Shown here in pieces: positions 3,011 through 34,388 of a stretch of DNA of 64,000 nt. The notes beneath the pieces are model-generated. The model did no database searches. It was not told the origin of the DNA and was given only the letters and a program-made list of their open reading frames with translations. Position numbers and translations under genes: made by a program. This DNA comes from Flectonema sp. DT1601 (taxonomy: Eukaryota). The stretch's first letter is position 1, and each line of letters opens with the position of its first letter. The DNA is taken from positions 62,001-126,000 of the forward strand of contig OZ025792.1 of assembly GCA_964019425.1 (NCBI GenBank), read 5' to 3'.

Positions 3011-3264
3011 TTAGGATGACGCAGCGTGGTGGGTGCCTTGGGATTTATTAAATAAAGCGGAAATAAAGGGGCTTTCCCACCCCCCTTTATTCCGCTTATT
3101 TCCCCTTTATTTCCCCTTTATTTTGGAAAAAAAGGAAAAAAAGCCCTTTATTTGGATTAAAAGCCCTTTATTTCCCCTTTATTTTGGAATTACGGAAATT
3201 AAAGGGCATTAAAAGCCCTTTAATTTCCCCTTTATTTTGCCCCCTTTAAAGGGGTACAAGTATG

Positions 3265-7334: not shown

Positions 7335-7351
7335 TCATAAATAAAAAAAAA

Positions 7352-8441
7352 AGTGAATTTGAAAAAGCAACCTCTGTCTTGGGTCCCAGATCTGGAATCA
7401 CGAGAGTCTTCAGTGATTCTAAATCCAATCTGGATGAGCTGCGTGGTGGAATTGCGGCTCAGAGGAAGCTGAACTCTCTCTCGATACTAGAAGGGATAAG
7501 AAAATTAGACTCATTCGTTCACCTTCAATTCATCCCAGCTCATGTGGGAATTGAACCGCATGACAAGGCAGATGAACTGGCGAAAAAGATCTCAAAAGAT
7601 GTTAAGAGCAAGCCGGTGTCAACGACTATGGACTTCTTCGCACATAAGTCAAGGATAGCGAGGGAAGCTAACAGAAAGCTGTTTGGTAAGATTATGGAGG
7701 GTTCAACAAGGGCGAAACCACCGATCAAACGGGTGATGCTTAGGCAATATCTTGATGCTACCGGAGGCCTGAGAGCGGCTCGATACCCCAAGGACATGCT
7801 GAGAGAATCAGAGATAAGGATAGCCAGGTTCAGAACGGGCTCTCACCCCCTGCTCAGGGTAAATGAACTACCGATAAAGTGCCCCTTCTGCAAAAGAACA
7901 GACTCTTCTGCCCGACATCTAATATTTGATTGCGAGGATGGTGACGTGGTCCGCATTAGAGAAGGAACAATTAGATCAAACATTCAGGAAGCGAGAATCT
8001 CCGAGACCAAACTAAATCTTTCAATAATGTTTGCGACGAGAAATCTTCACGCCCTAGCCGGCTACTTATGGCATTTGGAACAACGAACAGGCTTATCAAA
8101 CTGTTAACTGATTGGTAGTTGCTAATTCATTAGTATCATTCTTCCTTATCACACTCCTTAATCAACTCCTAATTTCTCTGAGGACATCCGCAGAGCTTCA
8201 TGGCTCGTAGGTAACCCAGTGGTCTTTGGCCACCGTCCCTGTACTGATCCTTCGCTTTATATTAACTGTGTCTTGAGATTCCTATCCGGGGAAGTCCTCC
8301 AACGGACTCAGGACAGTTGCGCTTGTTTTTACTTGTTTACTTTATCAAAAAATAAGAAGGGCAAGAATGCTCAGAATGAAGAAAAATAAAGTGGAAAGAC
8401 AGGGGGGATGTGACTAAATAAATAAATAAAAAAAAAAAAAA
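7352..8441 (+). mobile_element. Second, divergent, heavily 5'-truncated copy of the same LINE family (RNase H C-half, CCHC, 3' UTR, (TAAA)n/poly(A) tail)
   Basis: ORF 7379-8107 aligns with the C-terminus of 3573-7304 (18 differences over the first ~100 aa, counted by eye). Its 3' UTR matches and ends in GGATGTGAC-(TAAA)n-An. Confidence 0.92.
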
Positions 8442-9588: not shown

Positions 9589-12500
9589 TCAAGCCTTTCT
9601 TCTTTTTACGACTATTTCATCAGACTCGTCTTCTGAATCCGTTTCAAAACGCAGCTTCTCCGCTCGTTTTTGAACTTTCTTTCCAGAAGCTGCTCCACGC
9701 AAGACCTTTTTCTCAACGTGCGAAATCCCAATCTCCCATTCAGACCTGTGCTTCTCAATTAGGGAAGCAGCTTCTTCTTCTGTTGCAAGGGGCCCCTTCA
9801 TGACTTTGAGAGATGATTTAAACTTTTGGAGGTGAGACTTAAATTGTTTGTCTGCTTCAGTCTTGGAGGCAGTGATGAGCATGTCCGTTATGATCGGCAG
9901 ATAGGCAGCTGCAGGAATGGTTGCCTCCTCGTCTTCCAACTCGGGTATCGTTGTGTTGTAAAATCTAAAGCTAGAGAGAAGCTTTATCAATCTCTTTATG
10001 TTGTCGATATCTCCTTCTTTTTCGACCAACTCGCAGTGGAATTCCAACAGACACCACAACGCCAGCTTCTCATGCAACGATTGCGACCGCATTTCGCCAG
10101 TGATGACAGCAGCCTTTTTTTCGTCTTGATCTTCGTCCTTTGCTCTACGAGCGGAACCCAACTCTGCAACATCCGTAATTGCAGCTGCGAAAGCCAGCAA
10201 ACTGCCGAAAGAAGTGTACGGAGAGCTGCTCTTTTTTGTTTCCGTCGGGCTGGTTACCTTCTGAATGTCATAATCTTTTAAAATAATGAAGTCTTCCCTC
10301 GCAACGTGTCGCAGCGCCAGTTGCATTGACTCCAAGCAGAGTGTAAGTCTGCTGTACGAAGAGTATGGGAACACGTCGAAGAAGACAGCCAACACTTGGA
10401 GTGCTTGCTCGCGGTCTTCTGAGTACTCGCCATCCGATTTTTCAAAGAAATAAAGAACTAGTTGAGCCAATGCAATTTTTTCAATACCTCCCGCTGCATT
10501 CGATAATCTGTTGCAAGAGAGCAACTTCGTCAGACATTGCACTGCCGTGGCTCTCAACGAAACACGACGCTCCAACACGTCTGACGGGGTTTCCGCAGCA
10601 ATGTCTTCGTCCTCTCCACCAAACGAATAATCACCAGTACTCGCGAACTGAACAATAATCTTCGTAATAGCGTCTCTTGATGGGATCACACTTCTCGCAC
10701 CGTGTTCAACTACTAAATCTGTTAGCCCTCGCAAGGCTTCCTGCATAGGAGGAGTACAGGAGGTTCCGAGAGCCTTTAGGTTTGGGTACGCTGATTTGCG
10801 TAGAGCGTCTAATAGAATTTTCGAAAATGTTTCCGCAGCCTGCTTTTGTAGGAGGCCGAAGTATGTGAGTGCGTGGATACCCTTTGTGCGAACATAAGTA
10901 TTGCAATGGGTTTGGGAAACCGCGACAGCAATGTCTTGGTGCTGGCTGTTGATTTGAACAGCGTGCGTTGGTCGAGTGTCATGCCTTGCCGTTTCAGTTA
11001 TGATTTCAAGGATGCGAACCCAAAGCCCAACATCATTGCTGGACTCTGTTTGTAGTTTTGTTAACTCACCTTCAGCTTCTTCTAGTTCTTCATCCTGTTC
11101 ATGGACTTCTCTGACAGAAGTCTTTGCCGAATATAAACTTCTCTTCTTGTGCAGTTCAGAAATAGTTCTCTGTAAGCAAATGCATTTTCTATTCAGCTTA
11201 ATTATCTTCTGTTGCTTGGCTAAGTCATCTCTGTTTGTCTGTTCAGCATCAAAGAAGAGTTCTTTGTCAGGGTCTTGATCATCTTCCTCTAACTGTGTGG
11301 ACATCATTTTATTGAGACGAAATATAACAATTGAAATCATGCGGGAAAACTCAGACTCACGATGTCTGTAAAAGTGCCGACACAGTTTGACGGCTTCCGC
11401 TGCCAGCTGTGTCGGAGCAGAGATGTCAACCATTTGAAGAATAATAAAAATGGGATGCATTACTCGTGCTCTTTGGTCTTCAGTGTGCAAGTCGGGTTCA
11501 TAAAACAGTGCTAGTTTCAATAACTGTTTTGCTAAAGAAGTCTTGAGAGTCGGTTCATCCATAGTTAATCCGTCAATGTACCTCTGTAACATTGCAGAAG
11601 TAAAGTCTATATTAGGAAGGTATCTATCACTCCTGTCACTGTCTGGGTCGTATTGTTTTATTTTCTTTATTACAGATCGCAGCAGTAAAAGTGACTCCGC
11701 AGAAAGGTTGTCTTCACACAACTCTTTGCGCTGTTCCAGATCCCAGACGTCTTCAGTTTCAGTTTTCTTGTATTTTACTTCAAAGATGGTTTCAGCAATT
11801 TGCTCACACAACTCTTCATCCTCATCAATCTCAAGTAGTTGAAGCACCTCAACGCTGTTGTGGCGTTGCAGCCAGTTTGCGATTAGTTCCTGTTTTATAA
11901 CATTTATAGCCGTTGTTGAGAATACTTCATATCGATATTCCAATTTCAACAACTACAAAAAAAGAAACACACCTGAGTCGTCTTTCTGATGTCTTCAGAA
12001 CGCTCATTCAGACCTCTCATGAGCAGCGAACGTCGCTGGGAAAGAAGCAGCCAAGTTGGTGGTATTCTAGCCAAGTGGCGATATGCAAGTTTTCTAACCT
12101 GAAGATTAACATCTAAAGTGTGAGTAATAAGTAACTTCAGAATGTTTTGTGACATCGTAAGTCTTGAGAGAACAGCAAGTCGAACTGGGGCAGTGTCACA
12201 AGACATGAGTTGATGATAGTGTTGAGTAACGTCACATTTCTGAGCTGATGAAGGACACTGAAGGAGATAAGAACAATCAACAGCCTTTACTCGAACAGTT
12301 GCTACTTTATCGTCTTGTCTATCGTGAGCAAAGGCGGCTATTTTATCGAAAAGTTCATACTCATCGAACTGGTCTTCTTCTTCCACATCTTCCTTGCTTT
12401 CAGCAGCTGCCTTCTCTTTTGCAGTCCTCAACTTACTCAACGACATCATACAGCATGTTACTAACTCGCAGGCATTTCGTCGGATGTCTTTGTCTTCACA

Positions 12501-12833
12501 GTTCTCAGCAGACATTGCTTTCTCCAATAGCCACGCTGCTTGATATGAACTTTCTCTTTTCAGAAGATATGCTCCCGTCATCTTCATCACTCTGTCAGCA
12601 GCTGCGTACTCTTTCGATGCCAAAGCCCACTGCAATGCATACCAGATCTCACTTAAGAAATCATCCGTTCCTTTCTGTTCTAAAGTTATCAGAAGGGACA
12701 CCATCCGACTGTGACTCGCATTACTCTTCTGTGCCGTGTGAAAGGCTGAACAGACGGACTTGCGCAGCTTGTTGGATTCTTTTTTGTTCTTCTTTTCCGA
12801 AGAGGACTTTGAAGCCTTGCGCTTTCCAGGCAT
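9589..12833 (-). CDS. NCAPG: Condensin I HEAT subunit CAP-G (Ycg1/Cnd3) (2 exons)
   Basis: Exons 12833-11973 and 11889-9589 with an 83-nt GT-AG intron. Motifs include AFHTAQKSNASH, DKVATVRVKAV, TLDVNLQVRKLAY, LMRGLNERSEDIRKTTQ|ELIANWL, AVQCLTKLL and QALQVLAVFFDVF. Confidence 0.82.
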
Positions 12834-13376
12834 CGAATTGGTGCCACCTGTTAGAAAAGTAATCAGAAGTTAAATGATGTTCACAGCAAGCCAAAAAAAA
12901 GGTAAACTACTACTTAATTCACATGTTGTTTATATCCCTGTTGGTACTTACTTAATATATTGACTGGGGATACATGCTACGGGCTATCGTGTCGTAATTG
13001 ACGCTTGTTAACGAAATAAAATACTTCTAAGCAGCGCTAAAGTCAGCAGGAAAGCAACCAGGTGTTGGCAACATGAAATCTTTCGTGTTGCCTTTGACTT
13101 ATTTTCTTCTTCGATGTTTTCTGCGAAATGGTTAAAATCAAACGACTGCTAAGAAGACCCTGTCTTGAAGAGTCAGGTGCAACTCAGCTGCGTGTAAAGC
13201 TTTTAGTGCTTTTAAGAAGCGAGAAGTACAAACAAAATACTTCTCCGTTCTTCTTTCATAAAATGAAAAAAAAATACTGGGAAAGGAACTAAACAAAACA
13301 ATCTAAAAGTACACGTAGCAGGATCCACTCACTTGTGGTGACTAACTTCTAATTCGTAATCACAACTGTACATGTT

Positions 13377-16986: not shown

Positions 16987-18451
16987 TTATTGTTCACTTT
17001 CGACTTCAATTGGAATAAATGTTGTCCTGTTTGTATTTAACAATTAGCGTAGTGCGGCCATATAAAGATAAGACACATCGCACGCAAATAAGACAAAAAA
17101 AACAAAACACATACGGGAATCCCGGAAGAGACATATCCACAATAACAACACCGGGAGACGTCTCAAACTTAGGAATTGCAACAAGTCTACAGGATACAAA
17201 TTCCCCAGTAACCTCACAGGTTGAGGTAAAAAGACGAGTTTCAAACTGTGGAGCGTTTCCTGCAAAGAAGAGGTGTGGAGTTTTCTGTAAAATAAACGGA
17301 TCATCTTTCTTGTAAGAATAACAAGGGAGCGTATCAGGAGCGGTTGGAACAAGGTGATTACATCTTATCAATGCCTCTAACATATCACAAAGTGAGCTGA
17401 TTGTTGTTTGATCGCACAGCTCAGAAAGATTCTCACCAGATGTTCCCAAAACTGTAATTGCGTCATTTTGTAAAGTAAATTCAAATGGTGAAGTTACAGG
17501 AACAGTATTCCCTCCATCACAAGACTTTCTTAATAAACAAGGATGAAAGGGTTGATAAGGGAGAAGAATACTTGTGGGATCAGTCCTTGCTGGCATTATA
17601 TCAATCGGAACAGATCTGCTTAAAACAGAAAGAAACTGATCAGCTTCTCTCATTGGTTCGACTAGTTCTGCTTCTTGAATCTGCTTATGGTCACTCATCT
17701 CTAATTTAATTTTATTGGACATTCGTAAGTCAGATGTCTGTGCTATTACTCCTCCCGCGACTATTACTTTTGAAATCTTTCTCACCAGTTCAATGCAACC
17801 TAAATTACCACGTAAAAGATTAGAAGCTGCGTCTCTGTGAAGTCTGATGTCTGTTTTTAAAGTGTCCGAAGATCTGTCTTTACCAAAGTCAAGTCCGCTC
17901 ATGAAAGCGATGCTCTGATCTGGTAGGGTGCTTGGCAGTGATGGTTGGTGGGGCAAGGGTGCAAAGGTCCAATCCGTAACTTCGAACTTTTTCCCCTTTA
18001 ATGCTCCAAACACAGCAATTATCATCCCCGTTGTAAAGCCACCCACTGGGATATTTCCTTCGAGGTCAGTACGTCCACTGGAATCTTCAAGCGAGAGGGA
18101 GTCGTCTGGACTGCACTTTGTGATGTCTTCCTCCTCAGTAAAATTTAACGTCTCGTCTTCCCCCATCTCTCTCGCATATTGAAGAAGAAAATTCGGTTTG
18201 CATTTCATGTTTTTATAAAGTGCACCGATACAAGCACAGTCTTCTCCTTGATGTAAGTTTACAACTCTTGACAGCTTGACGTCTTCCCCCCATTTCTTTT
18301 TTACGGACATTACTAACCTTTCCTTCACTGCATTTAATCTCGTTGTGTACATACTCGCAAACTGTTGGTTGAACTGCATATCTCGTAATACGAATCTCTT
18401 GTGATTGTAATTGAAACCTTCGCATTCAGCACGTTCTGCATTCTCTTCCAT
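16987..18451 (-). CDS. POLD2: DNA polymerase delta small subunit (2 exons)
   Basis: Motifs QQFASMYTTRL, LEDSSGR, DPTSILLPYQPFH, GTSGEN, HLVPTAPDTLPCY, DPFIL and PHLFFAGN. A predicted 88-nt GT-AG intron (17027-17114) gives the C-terminus FPTTFIPIEVESEQ*. Confidence 0.93.
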
Positions 18452-18954: not shown

Positions 18955-21724
18955 TTAATTATCAGAAGATACGACTCCACCTACTACTTGGTCAACTGCA
19001 AGGCACTCACCCGGCCATATTTCAAATTTAAAGTTTGAGTCGTTGCTACTTTCTACAGTAGCAATAGCCCCAGCGATACTACCTGGAACTGATGACACGG
19101 AGCACTTCATACCTGACTTTGGTAGTTTGATGTCACCATAGTCATTAATGATAAAAACATCTTTAACAAGGTTCTGAATACCATGAAGACACAACTGACC
19201 AGGTTTGCCACACTGAAGGTGCCTCAGAGCTGCCCGCTGCTCTCCAAGCTCAGTAACGACGACGTTCATTCCGATCGACAAAATATTTTCAGAGTCAGAT
19301 GTTCCAAAATAATACTCAACCAGACTTCCACTTATGTAATTGCCAACTGTAGTTTCAATGCCCGAGTCCAGACCACTGCATACTACGGCTGCCACAAGGA
19401 CACAGGCGATGTGACTATTTGAATAACTGACAGTCGCACTACAAAAAGGTATAACTCTCTGCTCAAGTATTTTGTGTGTGAAATGACCAGGTGGAAATGC
19501 CCTAAAGTATTGCTTATCAAGATCTAACAATCCAGGTGACCAGGGGTGTTTACACCAAGTAGTGATTGCTTGTATGTTTCTCATGGCCTGTGTTTCTCCA
19601 TATAGTAACGTCTGTAGCTCAGTTTCGTGGTGCATGCATGGATCACCTTTGTAAGCAAGACTCCAAGTTCTAACATCACTTGATGTACAACTGCAATATG
19701 GATGTTGTATTTGTTGTTTGTTAAGGTCTCGAGTTCTCTGTTCTCCTATGTAACCTGTTGTCCAAATACTTCTCCGCAACCAACAATGAGATGCGCGTTG
19801 ATATAATTCAATTAATCCTTCTTGCTGGTCGGCACTTGACTCGAAGTCAAATCGAGCAGACCTATTTACGTCTATATAGGCTGCTATTCTACTTCTTGCT
19901 GCTACCACAGGATGAATTTCCGGAACGCAAGTCATTCCTACACGACGCGGCTGAAGTGCCAAGTCCTCGAAACTTGGCATAACTGGATTCAGAATCGGGT
20001 AACTGTACTTCGGATCGTCTAATGACGTGACTTGAAATAAACGCATTCTCTGAATACGGTCTTTCTTCATCTGCACAACGGGATACAGGCACGAGTTTGG
20101 CGTAACATTGTGTGTACCGATGCCGCCTGCTCTTAGGAGCGGGAACTGAACAGGTGAGCTCCAAACGGAGACCACTAAGGTGAGAATGGCAACGTTTTCT
20201 GACACCATAGCAAGTGAGACGCCAGCTTGGTCGCTACCACATCCGCCTAATTGAACCGTCCCGTGGAAGGTATCGTCAGAGCTTTTGTGTGTAATACTTC
20301 CTTTAAAATATTGTTCATCAGAATGTAAGTCTAAGTCAGCACACCTTCGGGGTACCATCGGTAATTTAATTGACAGGAACAAGACTTGGCTACTGGAAGT
20401 ACCCTCAACTAGTGCAGAGTTTGTATTGCCAATTAAGTTACCTTCTCCACAGTTGCTGCAGCGCATCTCGCGAGGAGGGTACAGGACACCAAACGGGCAA
20501 TTTGTGTAATGCATGTCATTGCACCTTGTGCTACAATGAACTGTTGTACATTCGTGGTATGTCCAATTCCCTTTCAAGGAATCCACAGGGACGGTCTCCT
20601 GTTGGTGTTCGACAGCTTTCGCAGTTGCCGCAACTGAAGTCAGCTCATCGTGCAGGCTAGTAGCTCGTTCATAATTGAGGCACTTTTCTATTTCTTCAAT
20701 GTGAACACCACCACCAGTTCTTAAAGCAACAATCTCCCACAAGCGAACATGCTCGCTGACATCAGCAGCGAGTAGCTTTGCTGCGTCGTGAAAAGATAAT
20801 TTAGAAGCCTTACTGAACTGAACCAGCGTATCCACAACAGGACTTCCCCAGTCTTGTGATGAAATTGATAACAACCAGTTCCGCTCTTCTGATATTAATG
20901 CTTGTTGTAGCAATCGTAAGAAAGCACATTCATAGTCTCGGACAAGTATTGTTGTAAACTTGTGCCTAGTCGCTAGATATTCCTTCCAGATTGAGGAACT
21001 CACCAGGTCAAATTGTATTTTTGACGCCAATTGGATATCTTCATTCCTGACAACATCGAGTGCGGATTCTTCTTCTTCACAAGCAAGCCCACAAAGGTAT
21101 CGAAATGGGTTTGGGATGTCTTCTTCATTAATGTATCCGCTGCTTTCAATTACCTCTTCGAGTGTGGTGGTGGGGAGCTCCATGAGAACTTTCTCAAAAT
21201 GAGATTGAAAATGAGAGATTTGATTGAAATTAAAAAGTCTAAATAAAGTACCGCCGAGTACTTTCCAAACAATCTGACACTCACCTTCTTTTGGGACAGG
21301 TCGGCCAGGCAAGCATTTCCAACAATGGTCGGAAAGAGAGTTTTGAATTTCTGAAGAATAATGAAGTTCGAGAGCTGTAGAATCAGTGTCCAGTTCTCTC
21401 TCAAAATCAACTGACAACTTTTCTCCAAACACATTAGGACAACACCTTAATAAGTACTCTTCTATAGACTCTCCCTCTTGCTGCTGTTTGGAATCAAATC
21501 CATTCAAGTTCAATAATGTATTGCACTGGACAACTACTTGTTGTTCTGAAATCATATTCGAGGTACCAGATGGGTGACCTTCTCCAGAGTCAGAAACCGT
21601 CTCCTCATCATCCGATTCAATCCACTCAGAGGTGTTAAGAAAATAACTAAATTCTTCCTCATCAGTTTCTACTTTTATTCTTTTCACGACCTGGTCAATA
21701 CTGGAAACGTGTTTGTTGGTAAAC
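18955..21724 (-). CDS. Large hypothetical coding exon (~920 aa, Cys/His clusters), possibly the last exon of the repeat-encoded gene
   Basis: A 910-codon ORF with no ATG in its first 45 codons. A CAG acceptor at 21725-21727 is phase-compatible with the GTATGT donor at 21948. Confidence 0.7.
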
Positions 21725-21929
21725 CTGTTTTAGAATTATGATCAGCTCTATTTCAACTCATCTATTCCATCGTAGTCGTGATTTATATTTAGAACTGAGG
21801 AATTCGATGTTATCCAACAACCTCAGTCAATAAAGCTGAATTAACAATCGCAATATAAGTCTGTGCAGCAAGTAGACCAATCGTTGTTTGGGGGGTGGAG
21901 CATTATTGAATATTTTTAGTATTATTATC

Positions 21930-23996
21930 GTTAAAAATATTTACATACTTAGTGTCAATGAGAATAGCCTCATGCTCGGCAGGAACAGATCCAACGTAAG
22001 GTTCTCGATTCCGCATATCAGCTTGTGTCATCGATCCGTTCCCTTCTTGCCGATTCTTCCACGCGGTGAAGGCTGCAGCCATTCCTGCAGGGGCCCTACC
22101 TAAATGGCGTGCCCTGTCTATCTGTGTGTGCTTTCGGTATTGCAGCGAAAGCGCAGTATGTTATTGTGCTCGTGACCTCGGAAAGAAACCGGAACACATA
22201 CTTGATTATAATTTGCCTTGTATCCTTTCGCATCAAGCTTCCCGCACACCTCCATAAAAGATAACCTGTTTTGTTGTGCACTCATTCAAAGGCTCGAAAA
22301 AGAACAATACATTCCCAATACGATTTACCACTACAAAGGGATGGTGCTATCAGTATTGATACACTCAGTGAGTTGTTCATAAGAATAAGAATCTCCCATT
22401 CTCAGATTCAAAGTGGTCACTTGACTCATATATTAATATCAATAAGAATCCCCGCCAGATGGAATCCAAAACAAGTCCCCTAGTAGTGGTTTTCTCAGAG
22501 GGACACACTTTTAACTATGTTGTGACTACAGAACGGATGAGAAATCATGTGAAGGAGAGAATGCAATTACTGTACTTTCTTGTTAAAAATATTTACATAC
22601 TTAGTGTCAATGAGAATTGCCTCATGCTCGGCAGGAACAGATCCAACGTAAGGTTCTCGATTCCGCATATCAGCTTGTGTCATCGATCCGTTCCCTTCTT
22701 GCCGATTCTTCCACGCGGTGAAGGTTGCAGCCATTCCTGCAGGGGCCCTACCTAAATGGCGTGCTGTGTGTATCTGTGTGTGCTTTCGGTATTGCAGCGA
22801 AAGCGCAGTATGTTATTGTGCTCGTGACCTCGGAAAGAAACCGGAACACATACTTGATTATAACTTGCCTTGTATCCTTTCGCATCAAGCTTCCCGCACA
22901 CCTCCATAAAAGATAACCTGTTTTGTTGTGCACTCATTCAAAGGCTCGAAAAAGAACAATACATTCCCAATACGATCTACCACTACAAAGGGATGGTGCT
23001 AACAGTATTGATACACTCAGTGAGTTGTTCATAAGAATAAGAATCTCCCATTCTCAGATTCAAAGTGGTCACTTGACTCATATATTAATATCAATAAGAA
23101 TCCCCGCCAGATGGAATCCAAAACAAGTCCCCTAGTAGTGGTTTTCTCAGAGGGACACACTTTTAACTATGTTGTGACTACAGAACGGATGAGAAATCAT
23201 GTGAAGGAGAGAATGCAATTACTGTACTTTCTTGTTAAAAATATTTACATACTTAGTGTCAATGAGAATAGCCTCATGCTCGGCAGGAACAGATCCAACG
23301 TAAGGTTCTCGATTCCGCATATCAGCTTGTGTCATCGATCCGTTCCCTTCTTGCCGATTCTTCCACGCGGTGAAGGCTGCAGCCATTCCTGCAGGGGCCC
23401 TACCTAAATGGCGTGCGTTGAGTATCTGTGTGTGCTTTCGGTATTGCAGCGAAAGCGCAGTATGTTATTGTGCTCGTGACCTCGGAAAGAAACCGGAACA
23501 CATACTTGATTATAACTTGCCTTGTATCCTTTCGCATCAAGCTTCCCGCACACCTCCATAAAAGATAACCTGTTTTGTTGTGCACTCATTCAAAGGCTCG
23601 AAAAAGAACAATACATTCCCAATACGATCTACCACTACAAAGGGATGGTGCTATCAGTATTGATACACTCAGTGAGTTGTTCATAAGAATAAGAATCTCC
23701 CATTCTCACATGATTTCTCATTCGTTCTGTAGTCACAACATAGTTAAAAGTGTGTCCCTCTGAGAAAACCACTACTAGGGGACTTGTTTTGGATTCCATC
23801 TGGCGGGGATTCTTATTGATATTAATATATGAGTCAAGTGACCACTTTGAATCTGAAGGAGAGAATGCAATTACTGTACTTTCTTGTTAAAAATATTTAC
23901 ATACTTAGTGTCAATGAGAATTGCCTCATGCTCGGCAGGAACAGATCCAACGTAAGGTTCTCGATTCCGCATATCAGCTTGTGTCATCGATCCGTT
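21930..23996. repeat. 652-bp tandem repeat, three full units plus ~110 bp, near-identical
   Basis: Identical ORF fragments recur at 652-bp offsets (22066, 22718, 23370). A 145-bp segment is inverted in the third unit (23709-23853). Confidence 0.97.
21949..23987 (-). CDS. Predicted spliced exons encoding three tandem 79-aa HTH/trihelix-like repeats
   Basis: Exons 23987-23905, 23569-23506, 23425-23253, 22917-22854, 22773-22601, 22265-22202 and 22121-21949. All donors are GTATGT, all acceptors are ACAG, phases alternate 2/0 and join in frame, and there are no stop codons. Confidence 0.65.
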
Positions 23997-24161
23997 ATTC
24001 TCTTGAGTAAGCTTTCTATTAGAAGAGATTTAATGGGGGAAACATAATAATAATTCACGCACGACAGATCAACCGAATTAAAAAAAACAAATACAATTGT
24101 GAACTTACAAATTGGTTTTTGCATTGAATTCAGATGAAATACGAATCACAACCCGAGTATT

Positions 24162-25049
24162 CTACCTGCCGAGGATAACACTTCTGCTTGCAGTAGATGA
24201 AGGTGACCGCAGTCCAATTGGTGTGTCGGGAGGCGGAGTTGACGGAAGTTCAATTTCCGTAAGACCACGACGACGACCAGCACCGTCACCTAAAATAACT
24301 GAAGGCCTCGATGCGTACGATGCGGTAGAAACGGGTGAAATGATTGAACCACGAGGTGCTCTTCTCCAATTTCGAGGCAACGAAACACCCTCAACTTCAA
24401 ATACAACTTTACGTTGGTGAAGTTGAATACCGTAAATAACAATAATTGAAGAAACTAAAACACAAGCCATACCACTACAATGATATGTTATCGTCGGGTT
24501 CAGAAGTTGTAATATTTCATTCTGTTCCATCAACTTCGCATAGTCTTCTGCTGTTTTACCCTCGTCGTTGATTAAGAATGGATTTGCTTCACTTCCCAGC
24601 TGAACCCGAACTGCAGTCAGATTTCTGTGAAGACAAGCTATGTGAAGAGCAGTGTTTCCACAGGAGTCTTTAAAATCGATTGCTGCGACGAGAAGCTCCA
24701 GAGCTTCAGTATCATCAACAGACTTTACAGCAATGTGTAAGGAAGTGTTTTTATTTTTATCACAAATAGTTGGATCCGCACCATGAGATATTAACATTTG
24801 AATGGCATCACCCCATCCATAGTCAGAAACTATGTGTAGTGGAGTTCGTCCAAACTTGTCAGTAGCGTGAATAGCACTACCATAACACTCTTCTTTACTT
24901 ATTATTGTTGTTGCTGACTGTAGTCCTTGACCATATCCTAAGATATTTCTAATTAATCTTCTTTCAGCCTGTGTTGACAGTTTCTTACTGCCTTTCAACT
25001 GCGACTCATCAAGCGTCGTTCCCAACTGAGATCTCCACGACGCATTCAT
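24162..25049 (-). CDS. Ankyrin-repeat protein
   Basis: DKFGRTPLHI...LISHGADP, KNKNTSLHIA and DSCGNTALHIAC. The probable start is the ATG at 25049, after a CAG acceptor. The exon structure is uncertain. Confidence 0.8.
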   Translation of the reverse strand: MNASWRSQLGTTLDESQLKGSKKLSTQAERRLIRNILGYGQGLQSATTIISKEECYGSAIHATDKFGRTPLHIVSDYGWGDAIQMLISHGADPTICDKNKNTSLHIAVKSVDDTEALELLVAAIDFKDSCGNTALHIACLHRNLTAVRVQLGSEANPFLINDEGKTAEDYAKLMEQNEILQLLNPTITYHCSGMACVLVSSIIVIYGIQLHQRKVVFEVEGVSLPRNWRRAPRGSIISPVSTASYASRPSVILGDGAGRRRGLTEIELPSTPPPDTPIGLRSPSSTASRSVILGR

Positions 25050-25266
25050 TTCTGCAACAACTGTTTGTGAATAAATGCAATAAAAGTAACCAAATTGAAT
25101 AACATGTCTTGTGATAAAGTTCCTGGATAACAGCAGTACCATCTTGGAAAAGACGATACGAACACAAATAGGCGACAGATACGGAACCGCAATGCAAATA
25201 ACAACGTGAGTTGGGTAAATGGGAAAATCAGCATGCAAAGCAGCACTACGAGAACCAGACAATATA

Positions 25267-26826
25267 CTACTGAAGAAGTGCTCTGGCAATGTCTTGTTGC
25301 TGTTTCGCTTCAACAATCATGCGTTGCATTTTTGTATCCGAAGGGATCAAGGCAACGCTCCGAACCTTTATTATGCCGAGGGGATCTTCATTGCTGCAGT
25401 CATCTCCTATCATTCGAATAAATGAAGATCTGTCTTTCAGATAACACTTCAGTACATTATCTCTGACGTGAGGGGTTACAGAAAAAGGAGTGACCGCATC
25501 AGATTGGTTTATTTTTAATAAAGACCTTTCCCATTTAAGCCGAAGAAGAGATAACTGCGCATTACGCATTCTTACATAGCTGTTGATGAATCGAGTACAA
25601 TGTCGTAATTTCATGCGGTAGAGATGAAGGCTCTTAAGTGGCCCATAAATACTTTTAATACCTTTCAAAAAGTGATTTATTTTTGCAGTCGCTCGTCGTT
25701 TTCTCCAACGTGCAATCATTGCGCTCCATTGCAATGAACAGCAAAGAGAGCCAGATAGAAATCGAAGCCTTTTAAGTCGAAACCTACAAAGTCTTCTACT
25801 ACACACAACCTTTAACATAATAATTGAGATGAATGTGAGGACGATATTCTTTTTCCTACATTTGGATGCAGCCTTACCGAAGCTAAGCAGCGCAATTATT
25901 ATACTCCAGCCGCACCCTCTGCGAGATGAAATCAATTCGTGTTCTACAGCATCTCGACGTTCTTGCCATCTCTTGATGCGATTGGTATTCTTTGTGTCGA
26001 TATAATTTCTGTATTCGACTCTTTTTTGCTCTGTTTGTAATGTACGGAGAACTATCGACTGCTTCTTTAACTTCTTTTCATGTTCAAGTTCAAGGGGTGT
26101 GCGAATATCGCTGTTCAACTTAATGAAATCGGGATTTAATTTCGGCAGGGTTTGGTTGTCTCTTTGATTATGTTTGGACTCGGTACAGACTCTCGAAACT
26201 ATAGCATCAATATGGAAGTAGCCTCCTGGTGGTTTTCTGTTTCTGATGAAAGACGGATGTGCTGAAACTTCTTTAGGAGGCTGTGGTTGGATATCTCCCC
26301 TCGCTATGTTTGTATTACTGACAGTAAAGTGTTTCCTACGTAAACAGGAATCTATCTGAGGTCGCTGAGAAGTCGATTCTTCTAACTGCGATCTTGCTAC
26401 GGATCGCTGCTCCTCTGACTGAACTTTCTCCATCAGCTGCTCAAAGTACTGGCGCTGCTTCTTAAGTTGTCGGTCCCGTCTGTCACTACAAGATTGCATG
26501 CAGACGCTGACTTTTTTTAATAATTGTTGAACTTCTTCATTCTTTAGGAAGGTCAGTATTGACATATTCTTCCGATAGTTAGAGTACTTCGGGAATATCG
26601 CATGTGGCGGTACTTTAACTGCCCCACCTGGGGTTGCAAATCTACTAATTGTCTCATCTTGTATGCTTTTCGATACACGATGAGGAACTCTCGCAATTTT
26701 GCGTCTCCGAATTTGCAACGAACTTGAGCGAGACGTGGTTGCATTCTCAGTCAGATTATCTACTCGAGTTAAATCAAAGACACTCCTCTGGGGACTCGAA
26801 ATTAGAGGGTCAGGTATTGTTGGCAT
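25267..26826 (-). CDS. Hypothetical basic, helical/coiled-coil protein
   Basis: 519-codon ORF on the coding strand. No family recognised. Confidence 0.65.
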   Translation of the reverse strand: MPTIPDPLISSPQRSVFDLTRVDNLTENATTSRSSSLQIRRRKIARVPHRVSKSIQDETISRFATPGGAVKVPPHAIFPKYSNYRKNMSILTFLKNEEVQQLLKKVSVCMQSCSDRRDRQLKKQRQYFEQLMEKVQSEEQRSVARSQLEESTSQRPQIDSCLRRKHFTVSNTNIARGDIQPQPPKEVSAHPSFIRNRKPPGGYFHIDAIVSRVCTESKHNQRDNQTLPKLNPDFIKLNSDIRTPLELEHEKKLKKQSIVLRTLQTEQKRVEYRNYIDTKNTNRIKRWQERRDAVEHELISSRRGCGWSIIIALLSFGKAASKCRKKNIVLTFISIIMLKVVCSRRLCRFRLKRLRFLSGSLCCSLQWSAMIARWRKRRATAKINHFLKGIKSIYGPLKSLHLYRMKLRHCTRFINSYVRMRNAQLSLLRLKWERSLLKINQSDAVTPFSVTPHVRDNVLKCYLKDRSSFIRMIGDDCSNEDPLGIIKVRSVALIPSDTKMQRMIVEAKQQQDIARALLQ

Positions 26827-27377: not shown

Positions 27378-30300
27378 TTAAAATTCCAACACTCGCTTTC
27401 CGACTATCCCAAAATCAGAATCACTTTCAGGAAGACTGCTAACAGGAAGAGATCGGAAGTGCATGTTTTGTGTAACTTCGGGTTCACGAAAACGAGTTGA
27501 AGGACTCGCAACTACAGACGACGGCATTGAAAGTGGATGTCGAGAAGGAGTCACAAAGTTAGTATTAAGAGTGTGATGATGATGAGGGCGAGAGATACGT
27601 CTTCTACCAAGACCAACAGAAGGCGTTAATATCGGAGGTCCTCTTTGAAGAGAAGAACCACTTCCATCCACACAGTCACCAGGTGAACTTCCTCTAGTCT
27701 GCAACTGGTCAATTGTTAACGCGGGTGACGATCCTCTCAAACTCAATTCAACTTTCTGCATCGCATCAACAGGTGCTTGCGTAGTTGGTGATTCACGTCC
27801 GCTGACACGACTATTCCTTCGATAAGCTTCATTCTGTTCTCGTAATTCTTCTAATTGAGCGACCAGTTGTTGCTGCTGATGCTGCTGACGCTCATAAATT
27901 TCAACATTTGTGGGATTTCCAAATTGATGAGCGGCATTAGGCTGCTGCTGGGATATGAATTCTTGCTGTTGGTACGCTACCTGTTGTTGACTGATCAACT
28001 GATTGTCTGTAAACTGTTCAGTTGGTTGGTAGACGGGTTGGTTCTGTTGATAATCTGCGATATTATTTTGAAGTGGTGTCGGTGAAGCAAAGTCAACCTG
28101 CGCCTGTGCAGGTTGGCTCTCCCTCCTCTGCTGCGCTGGGTAGTGCTGAGCCCAAACTGAAACGGCTTCTTGTGGAGTTCCCTCAGCGCTCCGTTCAACA
28201 ACTTCATTTACTTTAATACAAAAAGGTGTTGTGGGCAGCAGTGGTAACGGCTGCAGTGGCTGCTTCTTAACTGGAGTTCTCGTTGAACGCTGATCTGAGA
28301 GATCGAAATGAATTGTATTTCCGGAAGGTGTTTCTTCCGGAAGATGTTGCTGAAAATTGCCGAAAATTGGAGTTTGCTGAAAACCAGGTGGAGGACCTGG
28401 GTGTGTATGTGCTGTGTTGCTGCGGGAGTCAACTTCATTTTGAGGTCTTGTTTTTATGCTACTCTGAGGTGAGAACGAGTCGAGTGAGCTACTGAACTGA
28501 CGAGCAGTTGCTACTTCAATAGTAACTCCAGGAGGATGTTTACTAACAGGGGTTGGCATGTTTCCGACCTGAATGGTGTCACGAGCAGCAGCAGCAGCAG
28601 GTGGCTTTGGGGGATCTCGCGTTGGCTTTCGTATCGGAGTGTTGTTAGCCGTTGAGAATAACTTCGTCGCAATTTCATCTCCTCGTTCAGAAACAGATTC
28701 CACGACAGCTGCAGCTCCACCAGAGTTTGATGGATTTCGTAAGGAGGGTACTTTTAACTTCATACCACTTCCTGGTGAGTCTACAGCTGATATTGAATTA
28801 TTAACACTTTGTTGTGTCTGACCTGTAAACCGTTGTGGAGAGTGAGAAGCTGTCAATACTATCGCATTCGTTGATGGCGTCTTCAGTTCTGGTTGCCATC
28901 GAGCTTCAGGGCTTTCAGTGACGTTAATATCAGAAGATCGAATAGTAATAACATCATTATGAGAAAGATTGAAGTCTTTACCTGTTTCGTTATCAGTTAG
29001 TTTTTTCCCTGACTGCGTAATTAGTTCTAACCTTTCAAGTGGAATGTTCAACAGACCAGATGCCGTATCTCGTAATGACTTTACACGAGTGTCTTGAAGG
29101 TTTGCTGCGCTTCCACTCGACATTTTAAATTTCTTTCCTTCCCAAGGAACATACAAAAAGAAGTTTCCTCCATCATTATGACTGGGCTTCTTAGCTGTTA
29201 TAATATCTCCAGGCTGAAGTGTTATTTGATTACTCTCAGTTTGGTTATTCAATACGAATGATTCGTTGTTTCTAGACAGCTCAGATGTTTCACCAGCTTC
29301 GTTTATTCTTCTGACTGACTCAAACAATTCCCTTACTGATAATTTATTGTTAATACTTATTACTACTTGTTGTTTATCTCCATTCAACCATGGACATAAT
29401 ATTACTATGTCTATCGCTTTGTGTTGTTCGGTACTTTCCTGAGCGGTTAGGACGTCTCCTGGTGAGATATTCGAAGAGTAAATACTTTCTTGTGGATCGA
29501 GTAAATGTTTATTTCTCAACAATCGAACGAGACCTGCCACTGGAACTGATTCAGCTATACTGCCAATTGATTGATTGTATCTCGCAGGTGTTGTCACATG
29601 TGTTTGTAACCACGGTATACTAATAACAATATCAAAACTCTTACTGCAGGTAACAACCAGAATATCATTTTTTGAAATATTTAAATTGCTGAGTATTTGA
29701 TCAGATTCCAACAAGTTATTTGATGAAGACAATTGAATATATTCGGGGACTACTTTTAGTAACGTCGCTACCATAGTCACCACTGATGAGACTAACTGTG
29801 ACTTCTTAACTAAGACAACGTGTTTGTTGTTTGAATCTGCCCACGGCACCACAACTGTTACTTCAAACTGACTGCTGATCGCTGATTTTTGTTGAGCTAA
29901 AATTACATCACCTCCGTGAATTTCAAAATTGCATATCTTCTGATCCTCAGAAAGAACTGAAGAAGATTTGGTTAGTTCAATGCTTCCTTCTTCTGCAGAG
30001 ATCTTCCCACAAACCTCATCAATGACTTCCTTTATCGTTGTGTTTGAAGTAACTGAAATTCGATGCTGTTGTTGTGTAGCCCACGGGGTGACAACTATCA
30101 GTGAGATTTGTGTTTCAGGAGGGGAGTCCTGCTCTCCCGTAAGTATCATTCCATTTACAATTCCAAACGAAGTTCCCATCTGAGAAGGTTGCAATACGAT
30201 TCCATCTGATGTACGAAGGGAGAGGTTTGGTTCAACAGAATTACCAGTTTGACAACAGAGAGAATTAATGATCTCCTGAACAGTGTTGGTCAGCTGAGTT

Positions 30301-32924
30301 GATATTTTATACCTCCTTGAGAGCCAGGGTAAATCAATAAAAATATCCACCAGTTGATGAGTTACTCCTTCAACATCATTATTATGACCTATTCTATTCG
30401 CTGTAAGAACTGCTCCTTCAGACAAGTTCACATTACCACTTAAAACAGTTCCTGAGGAATCTGTAAGCTGTAGATCAACGTCAGACATGTTGGATAGCTT
30501 TGCTACAGTTTTAATAATGTCAGATGTGTCGGTATTAGATATTGCAGTCATTTTATACTGTTTGTCATTCCAAGCAAGCCTTACTATAATATGAACAGAT
30601 TCACTTGATGAAGATCTCTGCTGAGTCTGTTCGCTAATCTTCTTAGCGATGAGAACATCTCCAGCTGAGAGATTAAAGTCTCCAGCCTTTTGATCATCTC
30701 TTAGGATAGTTCCAGTTGATGTAAATAGTTGTAAGTCAATCTCTAAAGTAGATGTTAGTTTCGCAATAGTCTTCAGAATAGAAGCAACATCAGTAGCAGT
30801 AAATACTGTCATTGAGTACTGTTTACTATCCCAAGGTACATTAACACGAATCTCAATAGAGTCTTGTTGTTGGTTCTGTTTTGGTTGTTGTTTCTGGCTG
30901 TCAATTATCTGCGCCCTCAACGTGCCTCCGGATTTCAGTCCGACTTCCTGCATCGTTTGGTCGTCACGAAGGGCGATTTCGTTTTCAGTGAAAAGCTGAA
31001 TTTGATTTTCAGGTTGTCCAGCAAGCTTTGCGGCTGTCTTTGTGATGTCAAGTACGTGTGTTGAAGGGTTTGCAGTCATGGGGTACCGAGCATTATTCCA
31101 ACTGAGTTCGATAGTAAACTGAATTGGCGAAGCAGTGACCGGCTCAGTTGCCGTTACTTGCTTTCCGATATTCTGAAGGGAGAGAACATCTCCTGCGGAA
31201 ACTGAAACGTCTTCGCAAGTTTGCTCTTCGCGTAGTATCATTCCATCGGATGTGAACAGTTGAAGATCTGCTTCTGTTTTTGAAGTTAATTTAGCACAGC
31301 CTGACAGAATGGATCCAACAGTAGTTGATTTGGTTGCGGACATTGAGAACTGTTTTTGGTTCATAAAAACAACCTTAACAGTAATTTCAAACTCATCCGC
31401 CGTCGAAGTCAAACTGCCCTGCCTGTCATATACGACTCTCTGAACAACTAAGACGTCGCCAGGGGATAGTTTAAAATTACTTCCTTGCTGGTCGTCTCTC
31501 AAAGCAACTTCTTTACTGCTGTACAATTGCATGTGTTCAGGGGGAGTGTCAACTACCTTAGAAAGAGTCTTTAGAATGCTGGAGACTTTTAACGTTTGGA
31601 GACTACCTTCTTTTAGGGTAAGCCTATGACGAAGGTTTTTCCATTTGATGTAAACAATGATCCCAGTCTTACCAGATGCTTGAAGGGTTTTTAACCAATT
31701 TAACTCACTAACTCTCTCTGGGTCATTATCAACAGTATCGACATCAGATAGTTGTTCAGGTGTGTATACAGTCACGGGAATCACTACTCTGTTTTGTTGA
31801 TCTGCTAGTGTCAGATGCTTTATCTCTGCTAATCGGTTCTCAGTCACTACTTCAATAAAAGTTCCTTGTCTTGCTTCAGCAGCTTCCTTCACCTTCATTA
31901 GGATTCGATCGTTCTCAGGCAAGTCATAATTCTCCTCCGAAAGCCCCTGAAGTGATCTCGCTTGAATTCCAAACCCTGACGGACATTTAAACAAACCTGA
32001 GATAGATGCCAACGCCACGCAGTGAGTCACTCTTCCGTAAGGACTAATTGAATGTACTGCTGTGTCACTTATTATGAGTGTGTTGCCATTTTGAAGAGAG
32101 GATGTGTAGTGCACTGCAGGGACTGATCTTGGAGGCCATCCCCCTGAGAGAGCAGGTATTAGTCGCTTTATTGAACGAGGTACTTCAATGAAAGGAAGCC
32201 TTGTGAGAGGAGATACCTGCATTTCTTCAACTACCACGGGAACCATCGCAACAGGTAATTCTTGAGAACGTGGTTGGCTAGAGTCGCGAACAACCCAATC
32301 AGAAGAAAGATCTTCCTGTTGATATTGAGGATGAATGCCGTAGCGCTCTCGAAGCTGAAATTGATCTTCTCTCGGGTTTGGACTCAATGAGGCTTTCTTA
32401 TCATCAAAGTAACCAGCAGGACTTGTTACTTTTGCATTAATATTTACATTCGATGAAATCTCTTGTAACCGTCTGGGGACTGGTGGAAGACTCGGGCTCC
32501 GCCTATTCTGAACAAACGGCGATGGGGGTTTTGGAGCTGGCGGAGGAGGAGGCGGAGTCAAAGCCACGTCTCGATCAGACTCCTCATAGCGAATCCTCGC
32601 AGCTGGGGATTGGGACATTCTTGGTGAAAGACTTCGGTAGGTCTGCCCTCTTTTTGGTGTCTTTTTTGTCGGTCTGGCACTCGTTACTGCGCTCATTACT
32701 AAAATAAATATGTCCAACTTAATATCTGGACCTTTCAAAGCAACCATTAATCTATCTATCAAATCTCTACTGTTCTCCTTATCTGCGACGTTAAAGAATC
32801 CTAACTGTAGGAGTGCAGATGACAGTCCGACCCTGTCGAGAACTCTCCCCTTTTCTTTATCATTCTTCGCATAGTTATTAAATACGCGTAGAAGGGCTTT
32901 ACGCTTCGCGTCCTCCCCGTTCAT
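27378..32924 (-). CDS. 1848-aa protein with EF-hand-like N-terminus, PH-like segment, ~11 tandem ubiquitin-like domains and disordered tail
   Basis: A ~80-90 aa unit repeats about 11 times between ~31670 and ~28930: hydrophobic beta-strand, PW, ...ILKT(I/A)AKL..., LQLFT...LRDDQ...LSxGDVL. Confidence 0.8.
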   Translation of the reverse strand: MNGEDAKRKALLRVFNNYAKNDKEKGRVLDRVGLSSALLQLGFFNVADKENSRDLIDRLMVALKGPDIKLDIFILVMSAVTSARPTKKTPKRGQTYRSLSPRMSQSPAARIRYEESDRDVALTPPPPPPAPKPPSPFVQNRRSPSLPPVPRRLQEISSNVNINAKVTSPAGYFDDKKASLSPNPREDQFQLRERYGIHPQYQQEDLSSDWVVRDSSQPRSQELPVAMVPVVVEEMQVSPLTRLPFIEVPRSIKRLIPALSGGWPPRSVPAVHYTSSLQNGNTLIISDTAVHSISPYGRVTHCVALASISGLFKCPSGFGIQARSLQGLSEENYDLPENDRILMKVKEAAEARQGTFIEVVTENRLAEIKHLTLADQQNRVVIPVTVYTPEQLSDVDTVDNDPERVSELNWLKTLQASGKTGIIVYIKWKNLRHRLTLKEGSLQTLKVSSILKTLSKVVDTPPEHMQLYSSKEVALRDDQQGSNFKLSPGDVLVVQRVVYDRQGSLTSTADEFEITVKVVFMNQKQFSMSATKSTTVGSILSGCAKLTSKTEADLQLFTSDGMILREEQTCEDVSVSAGDVLSLQNIGKQVTATEPVTASPIQFTIELSWNNARYPMTANPSTHVLDITKTAAKLAGQPENQIQLFTENEIALRDDQTMQEVGLKSGGTLRAQIIDSQKQQPKQNQQQDSIEIRVNVPWDSKQYSMTVFTATDVASILKTIAKLTSTLEIDLQLFTSTGTILRDDQKAGDFNLSAGDVLIAKKISEQTQQRSSSSESVHIIVRLAWNDKQYKMTAISNTDTSDIIKTVAKLSNMSDVDLQLTDSSGTVLSGNVNLSEGAVLTANRIGHNNDVEGVTHQLVDIFIDLPWLSRRYKISTQLTNTVQEIINSLCCQTGNSVEPNLSLRTSDGIVLQPSQMGTSFGIVNGMILTGEQDSPPETQISLIVVTPWATQQQHRISVTSNTTIKEVIDEVCGKISAEEGSIELTKSSSVLSEDQKICNFEIHGGDVILAQQKSAISSQFEVTVVVPWADSNNKHVVLVKKSQLVSSVVTMVATLLKVVPEYIQLSSSNNLLESDQILSNLNISKNDILVVTCSKSFDIVISIPWLQTHVTTPARYNQSIGSIAESVPVAGLVRLLRNKHLLDPQESIYSSNISPGDVLTAQESTEQHKAIDIVILCPWLNGDKQQVVISINNKLSVRELFESVRRINEAGETSELSRNNESFVLNNQTESNQITLQPGDIITAKKPSHNDGGNFFLYVPWEGKKFKMSSGSAANLQDTRVKSLRDTASGLLNIPLERLELITQSGKKLTDNETGKDFNLSHNDVITIRSSDINVTESPEARWQPELKTPSTNAIVLTASHSPQRFTGQTQQSVNNSISAVDSPGSGMKLKVPSLRNPSNSGGAAAVVESVSERGDEIATKLFSTANNTPIRKPTRDPPKPPAAAAARDTIQVGNMPTPVSKHPPGVTIEVATARQFSSSLDSFSPQSSIKTRPQNEVDSRSNTAHTHPGPPPGFQQTPIFGNFQQHLPEETPSGNTIHFDLSDQRSTRTPVKKQPLQPLPLLPTTPFCIKVNEVVERSAEGTPQEAVSVWAQHYPAQQRRESQPAQAQVDFASPTPLQNNIADYQQNQPVYQPTEQFTDNQLISQQQVAYQQQEFISQQQPNAAHQFGNPTNVEIYERQQHQQQQLVAQLEELREQNEAYRRNSRVSGRESPTTQAPVDAMQKVELSLRGSSPALTIDQLQTRGSSPGDCVDGSGSSLQRGPPILTPSVGLGRRRISRPHHHHTLNTNFVTPSRHPLSMPSSVVASPSTRFREPEVTQNMHFRSLPVSSLPESDSDFGIVGKRVLEF

Positions 32925-34388
32925 ATAAATAACTTATTCACGTCTGCGCATATAACGAACAGGGGTACCTGACCAAAGAATAATAATAATTCTCGTGAAG
33001 ATAAAGTAGACCTCAAACTAGGAGTGTCATAAATAGATTTTATGACTGAAAACTGTCACCACAACTTTTATTTGCTGCAAACTTAAATTTAGCAGCAGTC
33101 TATTTTATTTCCCCCCCGCCCCCCTCTTTCCGTTTCGAATGGGTGTTTTTGCTGAGACTAAGAGCAACATATATATAATCACGATAGTAAGACGAAAACA
33201 ACAGAGGTACAAACAAATATAATGCTCTCTCTCACCAGTATTTGGCAATCGATTTTGCAAATACTCACAGACAGCTGTGAAAAGTTTAGGGGCTCGAGTG
33301 TGGACAACCGCAGCAGAGCAACCTGAGAATTTAAATTACAGAAAACAAAAAAGAACTGCTATGTACAAAAAAAAAAAAAAAAAAAGATTGACCGCTACGC
33401 AGTCGTGAGACCAGACTTTGCGATTTACGTAATCCAAGATTGCAGTTGTGATAAAATACCAAGCTAATTGAATGTGCTTCATTAATGTCTGGAATATAAG
33501 TTTAACAACGAACCAACAGGTAAACTGTTATACAGCAGCAAAGCAGCCAAATTTTTTTAATAAAAAAAAAACGAAAACGAATGAAAAAAACAAAATGCCA
33601 CACACCACTATTACCATTGTACTCGTTTAAAAAAAAAAAAAAAGGAAAAGGGAAAAATGGAAAAAAGTAGTCACTATTGCTAATGGATTGGCTTTCCTCC
33701 GCAGTACAATTTTGCAAAGTTTCAGTTGGTTGGAAAGAAAAAAAAAAAAAAAAAATCCCTTTTCGTAATTTAAGGATATATTATGTAGCTGCCCAAACAG
33801 GTCATAGCTACAAACCCAATCAAACAAAGAAGGGTCAAAAAAAAAAATTAAAAAAAACAAACAAAAGCAAACGTATTTTTTTTTTTTATGTAGGAACGAA
33901 AGGGAGTACGAAACAAGGAAGGGTGATGAGGAGTCGAATAGATAATTAGATTTTATAGTGTTCCCGCTGTAGCGGGAAGTGAATCCTAAAAACAAACTCC
34001 GACTTCGGGAAATCAACTATTTCATTCTCAATACCAATAGAAAGAATAGTTGTGATAATACACAATTGTGGGGGAGATTTAATACGATACGAAAAGGGGA
34101 AGGGGGGGTGCACAGATATCTTTGTGTAATCTGATAATTATAGAGTGATCGTTCTCACAAAATTAAAAGTAAAGCAACAAATCACTATTTAAATACTTTA
34201 ATTGCACTGCGTATGCATATTGCCTACACTTCGTGATGTTCGGTAAGCCAAGTGTCACTCGCACAATGTCGGGTAAAAAAAACAATAATGATTTTATAAC
34301 TATTTCGTTTTCTTTTCTTCCTTAGCTACCAACTGAATGAAACCAATCTGTTAGCAGGCAAGTCGAAATCAGCGGTGTTAGTGAAGTG

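Follow-up and report, generated by a model that had tools for sequence, protein, structure and literature searches.

A homogenised, intron-split module with a variable residue pair at the predicted 5′ end of a diplonemid gene

The 64-kb window of contig OZ025792.1 from Flectonema sp. DT1601 (the whole stretch analysed, to which all coordinates refer) carries on its minus strand a tandem array of three 652-bp units followed by 111 bp of a fourth (21930–23996), as established by repeat comparison. We consider it probable, at roughly 60%, that this array forms, after splicing, the 5′ end of a diplonemid-specific gene with few copies and about 1,187 residues, that a helix-turn-helix (HTH)-like cassette has been amplified in it, and that a variable pair of amino acids in each copy represents predicted base-reading residues under selection. 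Three observations carry this reading: the anatomy of the repeat, the clustering of the differences between its copies, and the fact that the spliced module and the last exon are homologous to opposite ends of one set of proteins in other diplonemids.

Anatomy of the array and differences between its units

Donors and acceptors were read from the sequence. The repeat unit begins 9 nt upstream of the start codon (ATG at 23987), i.e. in the 5′ untranslated region (UTR), and extends to the end of the fourth helix, with successive copies fused in frame. The sequence-only reading had divided each unit into a 335-nt intron, a 64-nt exon A, an 80-nt intron and a 173-nt exon B, and this partition proved exact, as did the GTATGT at all seven donors, the terminal ACAG at all six internal acceptors and the joining of frames without a stop. 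Exon 1 (83 nt, 23905–23987) supplies the start codon and the first predicted helix of module 1. It is followed in unit 1 by intron 1 (23570–23904, phase 2), exon A1 (23506–23569) for predicted helix 2, the turn and the start of helix 3, intron 2 (23426–23505, phase 0) and exon B1 (23253–23425) for the remainder of helix 3, the fourth helix, a linker and helix 1 of the next module. The corresponding introns and exons lie at 22918–23252, 22854–22917 (exon A2), 22774–22853 and 22601–22773 (exon B2) in unit 2, and at 22266–22600, 22202–22265 (exon A3, with Asn replacing Ser at the start of helix 3), 22122–22201 and 21949–22121 (exon B3) in unit 3. At its end, exon B3 encodes a fourth module reduced to a helix-1 stub; the fourth copy breaks off 19 nt into intron 1 and is joined there to a phase-compatible intron. 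This last intron (224 nt, phase 2, 21725–21948, with a putative exact acceptor) thus has its first 19 nt in common with intron 1, and leads into a last exon of about 921 codons (18955–21724), which is homologous to five diplonemid-type proteins.

Unit 1 contains a 151-nt segment (23706–23856) that is inverted relative to units 2 and 3, is wholly intronic and differs by one base; this locates the intronic inversion that had been noted before. The inverted orientation creates a pyrimidine-rich CAG at about 23853, a possible decoy acceptor, as well as an open frame of about 80 codons (54 from its ATG) that spans the end of the inversion (both within 23635–23870, minus strand). On the upstream side, the tract at 24016–24045 (minus strand) is rich in pyrimidines, terminates in AG and is a candidate spliced-leader acceptor 28 nt before the ATG; the 30 nt preceding it are 73% pyrimidine, compared with 43–53% at the ACAG acceptors of the array. 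Directly adjacent to the array (23997–24005, minus strand), a 4-base substitution block precedes five bases that match the unit, which would fit an array that once reached further upstream or that arose at a microhomology.

With the inversion in unit 1 turned back, only 10 of the 652 columns varied among the three units, and four of these fell into a single 6-nt patch, which reads CTCAAC (Leu-Asn, 23417–23422), CACACA (His-Thr, 22765–22770) and GACAGG (Asp-Arg, 22113–22118) in units 1 to 3, at the coordinates originally proposed. Clustering this tight arose in 181 of 1,000,000 random placements (P ~2 × 10⁻⁴), bearing out the claim that variation is concentrated at two codons. Counted as minimal changes (at least 12, six of them in the patch), an equally clustered arrangement occurred in 1 of 2,000,000 placements. 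Pairwise, the units differed at 4, 3 and 5 of 646 positions outside the patch and at 3, 4 and 3 of 6 positions within it. The six differences outside comprised three intronic, one silent and two residue-changing substitutions, one of the latter at the first position of helix 3. At the protein level, four of 79 residues were thus variable: the pair, Ser/Asn at the start of helix 3 and an Ala/Thr exchange. Uniform mutation cannot place six changes in the 6 bases of the patch and no more than six in the other 646; therefore either selection has kept the pair diverse or the patch is a mutational hot spot. Introns and exons alike were about 99.4% identical between units, which points to recent amplification or continuing unequal exchange.

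The spliced gene and its diplonemid relatives

The splice model was evaluated on unit 2, for which 8,080 one- and two-intron GT–AG models were tried. Among the 5,328 that stayed open for 50 aa, the proposed four sites ranked first (score 221; next 203; median 98). The resulting module aligned without gaps to the two modules of the Lacrimia protein P0006 (36% over 73 aa and 34% over 64 aa) and to the second module of D. papillatum (P0005; 42% over 57 aa). Its alignment score of 130 compared with 64 for the best unspliced frame and 53 for the best of 1,000 shuffles, and the gap-free match to natural proteins ran across both splice junctions. The suggestion of a hidden spliced gene was thereby strengthened. 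What this homology indicates is the ancestral exon reading, not that all three copies are present in today's mRNA.

The product had been thought to end at 21949. Instead, splicing from the seventh donor (21948) to an acceptor at 21725, whose last seven bases equal those of the exon-A acceptor, would give a 921-codon exon and a total of 1,187 aa. Since 4 of 26 downstream AGs open the frame of the last exon, and an earlier ACAG at 21860 would yield a product of 275 aa, it is homology that argues for this join. The homologues that match the spliced module were found through the last exon alone, and therefore both ends of the protein map to this locus. We conclude that the array likely encodes, after splicing, no more than the N-terminal quarter of a conserved diplonemid protein of about 1,187 aa. 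Because all helix-1 donors, the exon-A acceptors and the last-exon acceptor share one phase, exon skipping could yield isoforms with zero to three modules. Diplonemid 5′ splice sites are described as mostly GTATG (PMC12621601), with which the donors of the array agree. Three introns of neighbouring genes (thioredoxin, PARP and an open reading frame (ORF) at 17006–18451), deduced from reading frames, likewise combine GTATGT with an A/C-rich ACAG. The large genes of the window are all encoded on the minus strand and are poor in introns. Of eight window proteins tested, one falls into a 90% cluster with a protein from Flectonema.

A search with the last exon alone against 1.84 billion representatives returned six matches at E ≤ 0.001, namely itself and five others: transcriptome proteins of D. 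ambulator, R. euleeides and L. lanifica, DIPPA_33581 of D. papillatum (E 4.8 × 10⁻¹⁹) and one ENA record. All named homologues are diplonemid. The five were collinear with the gene along its whole length; homology to DIPPA_33581 covered the last exon and the module, and 33 columns were invariant across seven rows. The N-terminus is complete in three of these proteins (1,172, 1,184 and 1,425 aa), each of which starts with short helical repeats, and the remaining two do not include this region. According to the supplement of PMC10161547, the hypothetical protein DIPPA_33581 represents orthogroup OG0013865, a diplonemid gain, with one member each in D. papillatum, R. humris and H. phaeocysticola, two in S. 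specki and none in any of the remaining 26 species tabulated. The family is not uniform in the number and period of its modules (three plus a stub at 79 aa here, two at 81 aa in Lacrimia, two at 116 aa in D. papillatum, three plus a stub at 52 aa in D. ambulator). No further array was found in the 64-kb window, and the family has one to two copies per species. A full-text search for DIPPA_33581 gave zero hits and no published account of the OG0013865 family was found, although supplements may bear on this; nor was literature found that combines diplonemids with DNA-binding, helix-turn-helix, Myb and repeat. The gene family appears to be previously undescribed.

Along the last exon, an acidic stretch is followed by a helical region, a four-Cys cluster, a conserved Cys/His core and a C-terminal beta region. 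The four-Cys cluster sits within a predicted 8-stranded beta-barrel region and the His/Cys core is invariant, so that the conserved part of the protein is likely metal-binding, as predicted from these patterns. A structure model of the core (mean predicted local distance difference test (pLDDT) of 40) was too poor to judge its fold.

Predicted fold and comparison with known systems

The pairs of ten modules from four diplonemid sources, tabulated as the sequence-only reading had proposed, were all different (window LN, HT, DR; Lacrimia QT, DK; D. papillatum RN, SD; D. ambulator AG, MN, VN). Position 5 of helix 3 showed nine residues in ten modules, position 2 seven and position 6 six, while position 3 was Gln in all ten and position 4 always aliphatic. 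As much else in the module varies between species as well, comparisons within a gene are the telling ones. The assembled transcript of D. ambulator provided a second case, with a separate amplification of three 52-aa repeats. Here, 8 of 11 columns in helix 3 were variable against 7 of 41 elsewhere (Fisher p = 9 × 10⁻⁴, with the interval chosen after inspection). By profile, these repeats bore a weak likeness to the module type of the window (22, 137 and 137 of 3,000 shuffles scored as high), and could be either remote relatives or a substitute module. The array ends in a helix-1-only stub in both D. ambulator (P0002/P0007) and the window. Homogenised scaffolds with hypervariable residues in a predicted recognition helix are accordingly present in two species, as far as the models place these residues. 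The isoforms P0002 and P0007 of D. ambulator differ by an 11-aa insert after the array.

A structure model of residues 1–162 of Lacrimia P0006 displayed two three-helix bundles (block pLDDT 63–85) with the pair within helix 3. We therefore assign the module a predicted architecture of three helices with the pair at positions 5–6 of helix 3. Of 50 structure-match rows (VIA), 22 bore HTH, Myb or transposase DNA-binding titles, and the match ranges placed the variable pair on K109/N110 of WER. Myb/SANT domains are characterised by regularly spaced core tryptophans. Such tryptophans were absent from helices 1–3 of the window module; the D. ambulator repeats have the first one. No Myb, SANT or trihelix Pfam profile exceeded its cut-off in scans of the homologues and of the window exons in unjoined form. 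The best Myb score came from Myb_DNA-bind_4 in D. ambulator only (12.1 bits against a cut-off of 27, E 0.27), with no score for the other four homologues or the window exons. Moreover, residues equivalent to the pair are conserved in MYB, unlike in the window array, where they are the most variable; this sets the module apart from Myb/SANT and the GT-1 trihelix. Of the earlier proposal, the three-helix fold with the pair in helix 3 was thus retained as a weak HTH fit, and trihelix/Myb membership was not supported.

The comparison with TALE proteins stands as an analogy. TALE units are helical hairpins of 33–35 aa with the variable pair in the loop between helices, and they read one base per repeat. 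The present array resembles TALE and TALE-like repeats in its two adjacent hypervariable residues within a nearly invariant repeat, but its repeat is 79 aa long and intron-split, and both Lacrimia modules that were modelled have the pair within helix 3. Neither the window exons nor the homologues matched the Pfam profile of TAL effector repeats, and TALE membership was rejected.

A closer parallel is offered by the coding minisatellite of PRDM9, in which homogenised array copies concentrate non-synonymous change at DNA-contact codons (PMC3890296). Both are low-copy genes with a conserved effector part and a homogenised tandem array that changes at its DNA-contact codons, which here are predicted. 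In contrast to PRDM9, the array is N-terminal, comprises three copies only and is built from predicted HTH modules instead of C2H2 fingers, each 79-aa unit being carried by a 652-bp cassette with two introns. No Pfam matches to KRAB, SSXRD, SET or C2H2 zinc-finger domains were obtained for the window exons or the homologues, and the module contains no Cys2His2 pattern. By this comparison, the gene behaves like PRDM9 in its evolutionary pattern and is a member of neither PRDM9 nor TALE. Repeats carried by exon–intron cassettes with diversifying selection on binding residues have also been described for the ROCO-LRR and NB-ARC-TPR genes of Ectocarpus (PMC3341825); there, large families of receptors use a single exon for each repeat and have proteins or ligands as targets, whereas the window gene is low-copy, has two exons per repeat and encodes a predicted DNA-binding fold.

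Taken together, a predicted HTH module would have been amplified recently as a cassette of two exons and two introns. Unequal exchange or gene conversion would homogenise exons and introns, exchanges that erase the pair would be purged and new pairs favoured. As a result, every module would recognise a short DNA sub-site of its own, and the conserved, predicted metal-binding core would be brought to its target by the array. The DNA sequence bound by the protein would thus probably keep changing, in parallel with PRDM9 in mammals. We propose a fast-changing target because DNA-contact residues, module number and spacing turn over rapidly in a low-copy reader; repetitive DNA, such as centromeric or mobile-element repeats, would seem the most likely one. 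Diplonemids are described as being without most known kinetochore proteins (PMC11633173), and a link to the centromere may merit consideration given this absence, though nothing in the analysis ties the gene to it. That the gene is a reprogrammable diplonemid DNA reader, with a swappable two-residue code and exon-cassette shuffling by which an HTH array chases centromeric or repeat DNA, possibly as a kinetochore anchor or a PRDM9-like hotspot component, we consider doubtful. A fixed scaffold with hypervariable contact residues marks genetic conflicts, as in PRDM9, TALE and immune receptors. If our reading is correct, such an array has been built on HTH modules and intron-containing cassettes in a lineage thought to control its genes mostly post-transcriptionally. 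Since D. papillatum proteins can be tagged at their own locus, localisation and targets of DIPPA_33581 are directly testable, and natural modules differing only in two residues provide a ready-made test of HTH reprogramming.

Alternative explanations and neighbouring features

In D. papillatum, dozens of repeat-bounded genes are reported in which the 5′ UTR and the first coding part are tandemly repeated, with degenerate copies (71–96% identity) that lay outside the mRNA in the case checked (PMC10161547). The array could likewise be a functionless 5′ duplication, with at most the last cassette in the mRNA, a spliced leader added at an internal AG, and a patch made variable by template switching or other local multi-base mutation next to a CA run. 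In keeping with this, the unit starts in the 5′ UTR, and in every intron 1 a T-rich AG stands 27 nt ahead of exon A, with a downstream ATG that shares the reading frame of this exon, so that trans-splicing into the last unit is possible. The patch of unit 2 copies the 8-mer of the adjacent acceptor (expected within 40 nt for 1.5% of all 4,096 hexamers) and creates an out-of-frame AG 10 nt into exon B2. Another change of several bases directly precedes the array, and the open frame at the patch proves little because 91% of random hexamers are stop-free. However, the patches of units 1 and 3 yielded no local template, and the copies are 99% identical, fused in frame and different mainly at two codons. 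Both new junctions, from unit to unit and from stub to last exon, keep the frame, and multi-module N-termini occur in the assembled transcripts of Lacrimia and D. ambulator. A hot spot would, moreover, have had to coincide fortuitously with the pair predicted to read bases, and a similar concentration is seen in the different repeat of D. ambulator. We therefore regard this explanation as unlikely, if the most serious of the alternatives.

Alternatively, the array might be translated and diversified as proposed, with modules that bind protein or RNA (as SANT-, FF- or carrier-like bundles), for instance a fast-changing target of symbiont, viral or mRNA origin. HTH and other small helical bundles are not told apart by the fold scores, several pairs contain acidic or hydrophobic residues, a weak sequence match in the PDB pointed to the TSG-6 Link module (E 1.3), and diplonemid gene control is thought to be mostly post-transcriptional (PMC10161547). 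Against this, the helix-3 positions that vary (2, 5 and 6) coincide with those used for base reading in MYB repeats, and a basic residue is found at position 7 or 8 in all ten modules. Tandem N-terminal HTH pairs are, in addition, typical of DNA-binding domains. On balance, a protein- or RNA-binding function appears rather improbable.

A DNA transposon or its decaying relic, with the HTH repeats as end-binding domains of a transposase, would account for the transposase HTH domains among the VIA rows (TnsB, ISCth4, Tc3, Sleeping Beauty, Mos1, IstA) and for the Cys/His clusters of the protein. This is very improbable for a gene with one to two copies per species in four diplonemids, collinearity over its whole length in five homologues and spliceosomal introns. 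Searches of Pfam, NCBIfam, PHROGs and PDB gave no match to a transposase, and none of the 25 longest inverted repeats listed flanks the gene. Although near-identical tandem copies are error-prone, an assembly or polishing artefact affecting copy number or patch sequences is hardly credible, given a contig of 1.45 Mb, unit differences that are substitutions without indels, private bases in every unit and one inversion.

Among the neighbouring features, an ankyrin-repeat ORF (24162–25316, minus strand) ends 175 nt upstream of the gene, and a 1,848-aa ORF (27378–32933, minus strand) comprises many tandem ubiquitin-like domains between low-complexity ends. The region 3266–8438 harbours a non-long-terminal-repeat retroelement ORF with endonuclease, reverse transcriptase and RNase H (3573–7334, minus strand), faced by a diverged partial copy (7298–8107, plus strand); the inverted arms measure 737 nt (71%) and 264 nt (88%). 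A 125-bp tandem repeat is present at 2128–3010 in 2.5 identical copies plus dispersed partial ones, and an AT-rich repeat is common to 195–381 and 3040–3237. Finally, ORFs 11946–12869 and 9589–11952 overlap in different frames around a GT…AG stretch of about 20 nt (11953–11972, minus strand), which may represent a very short intron.
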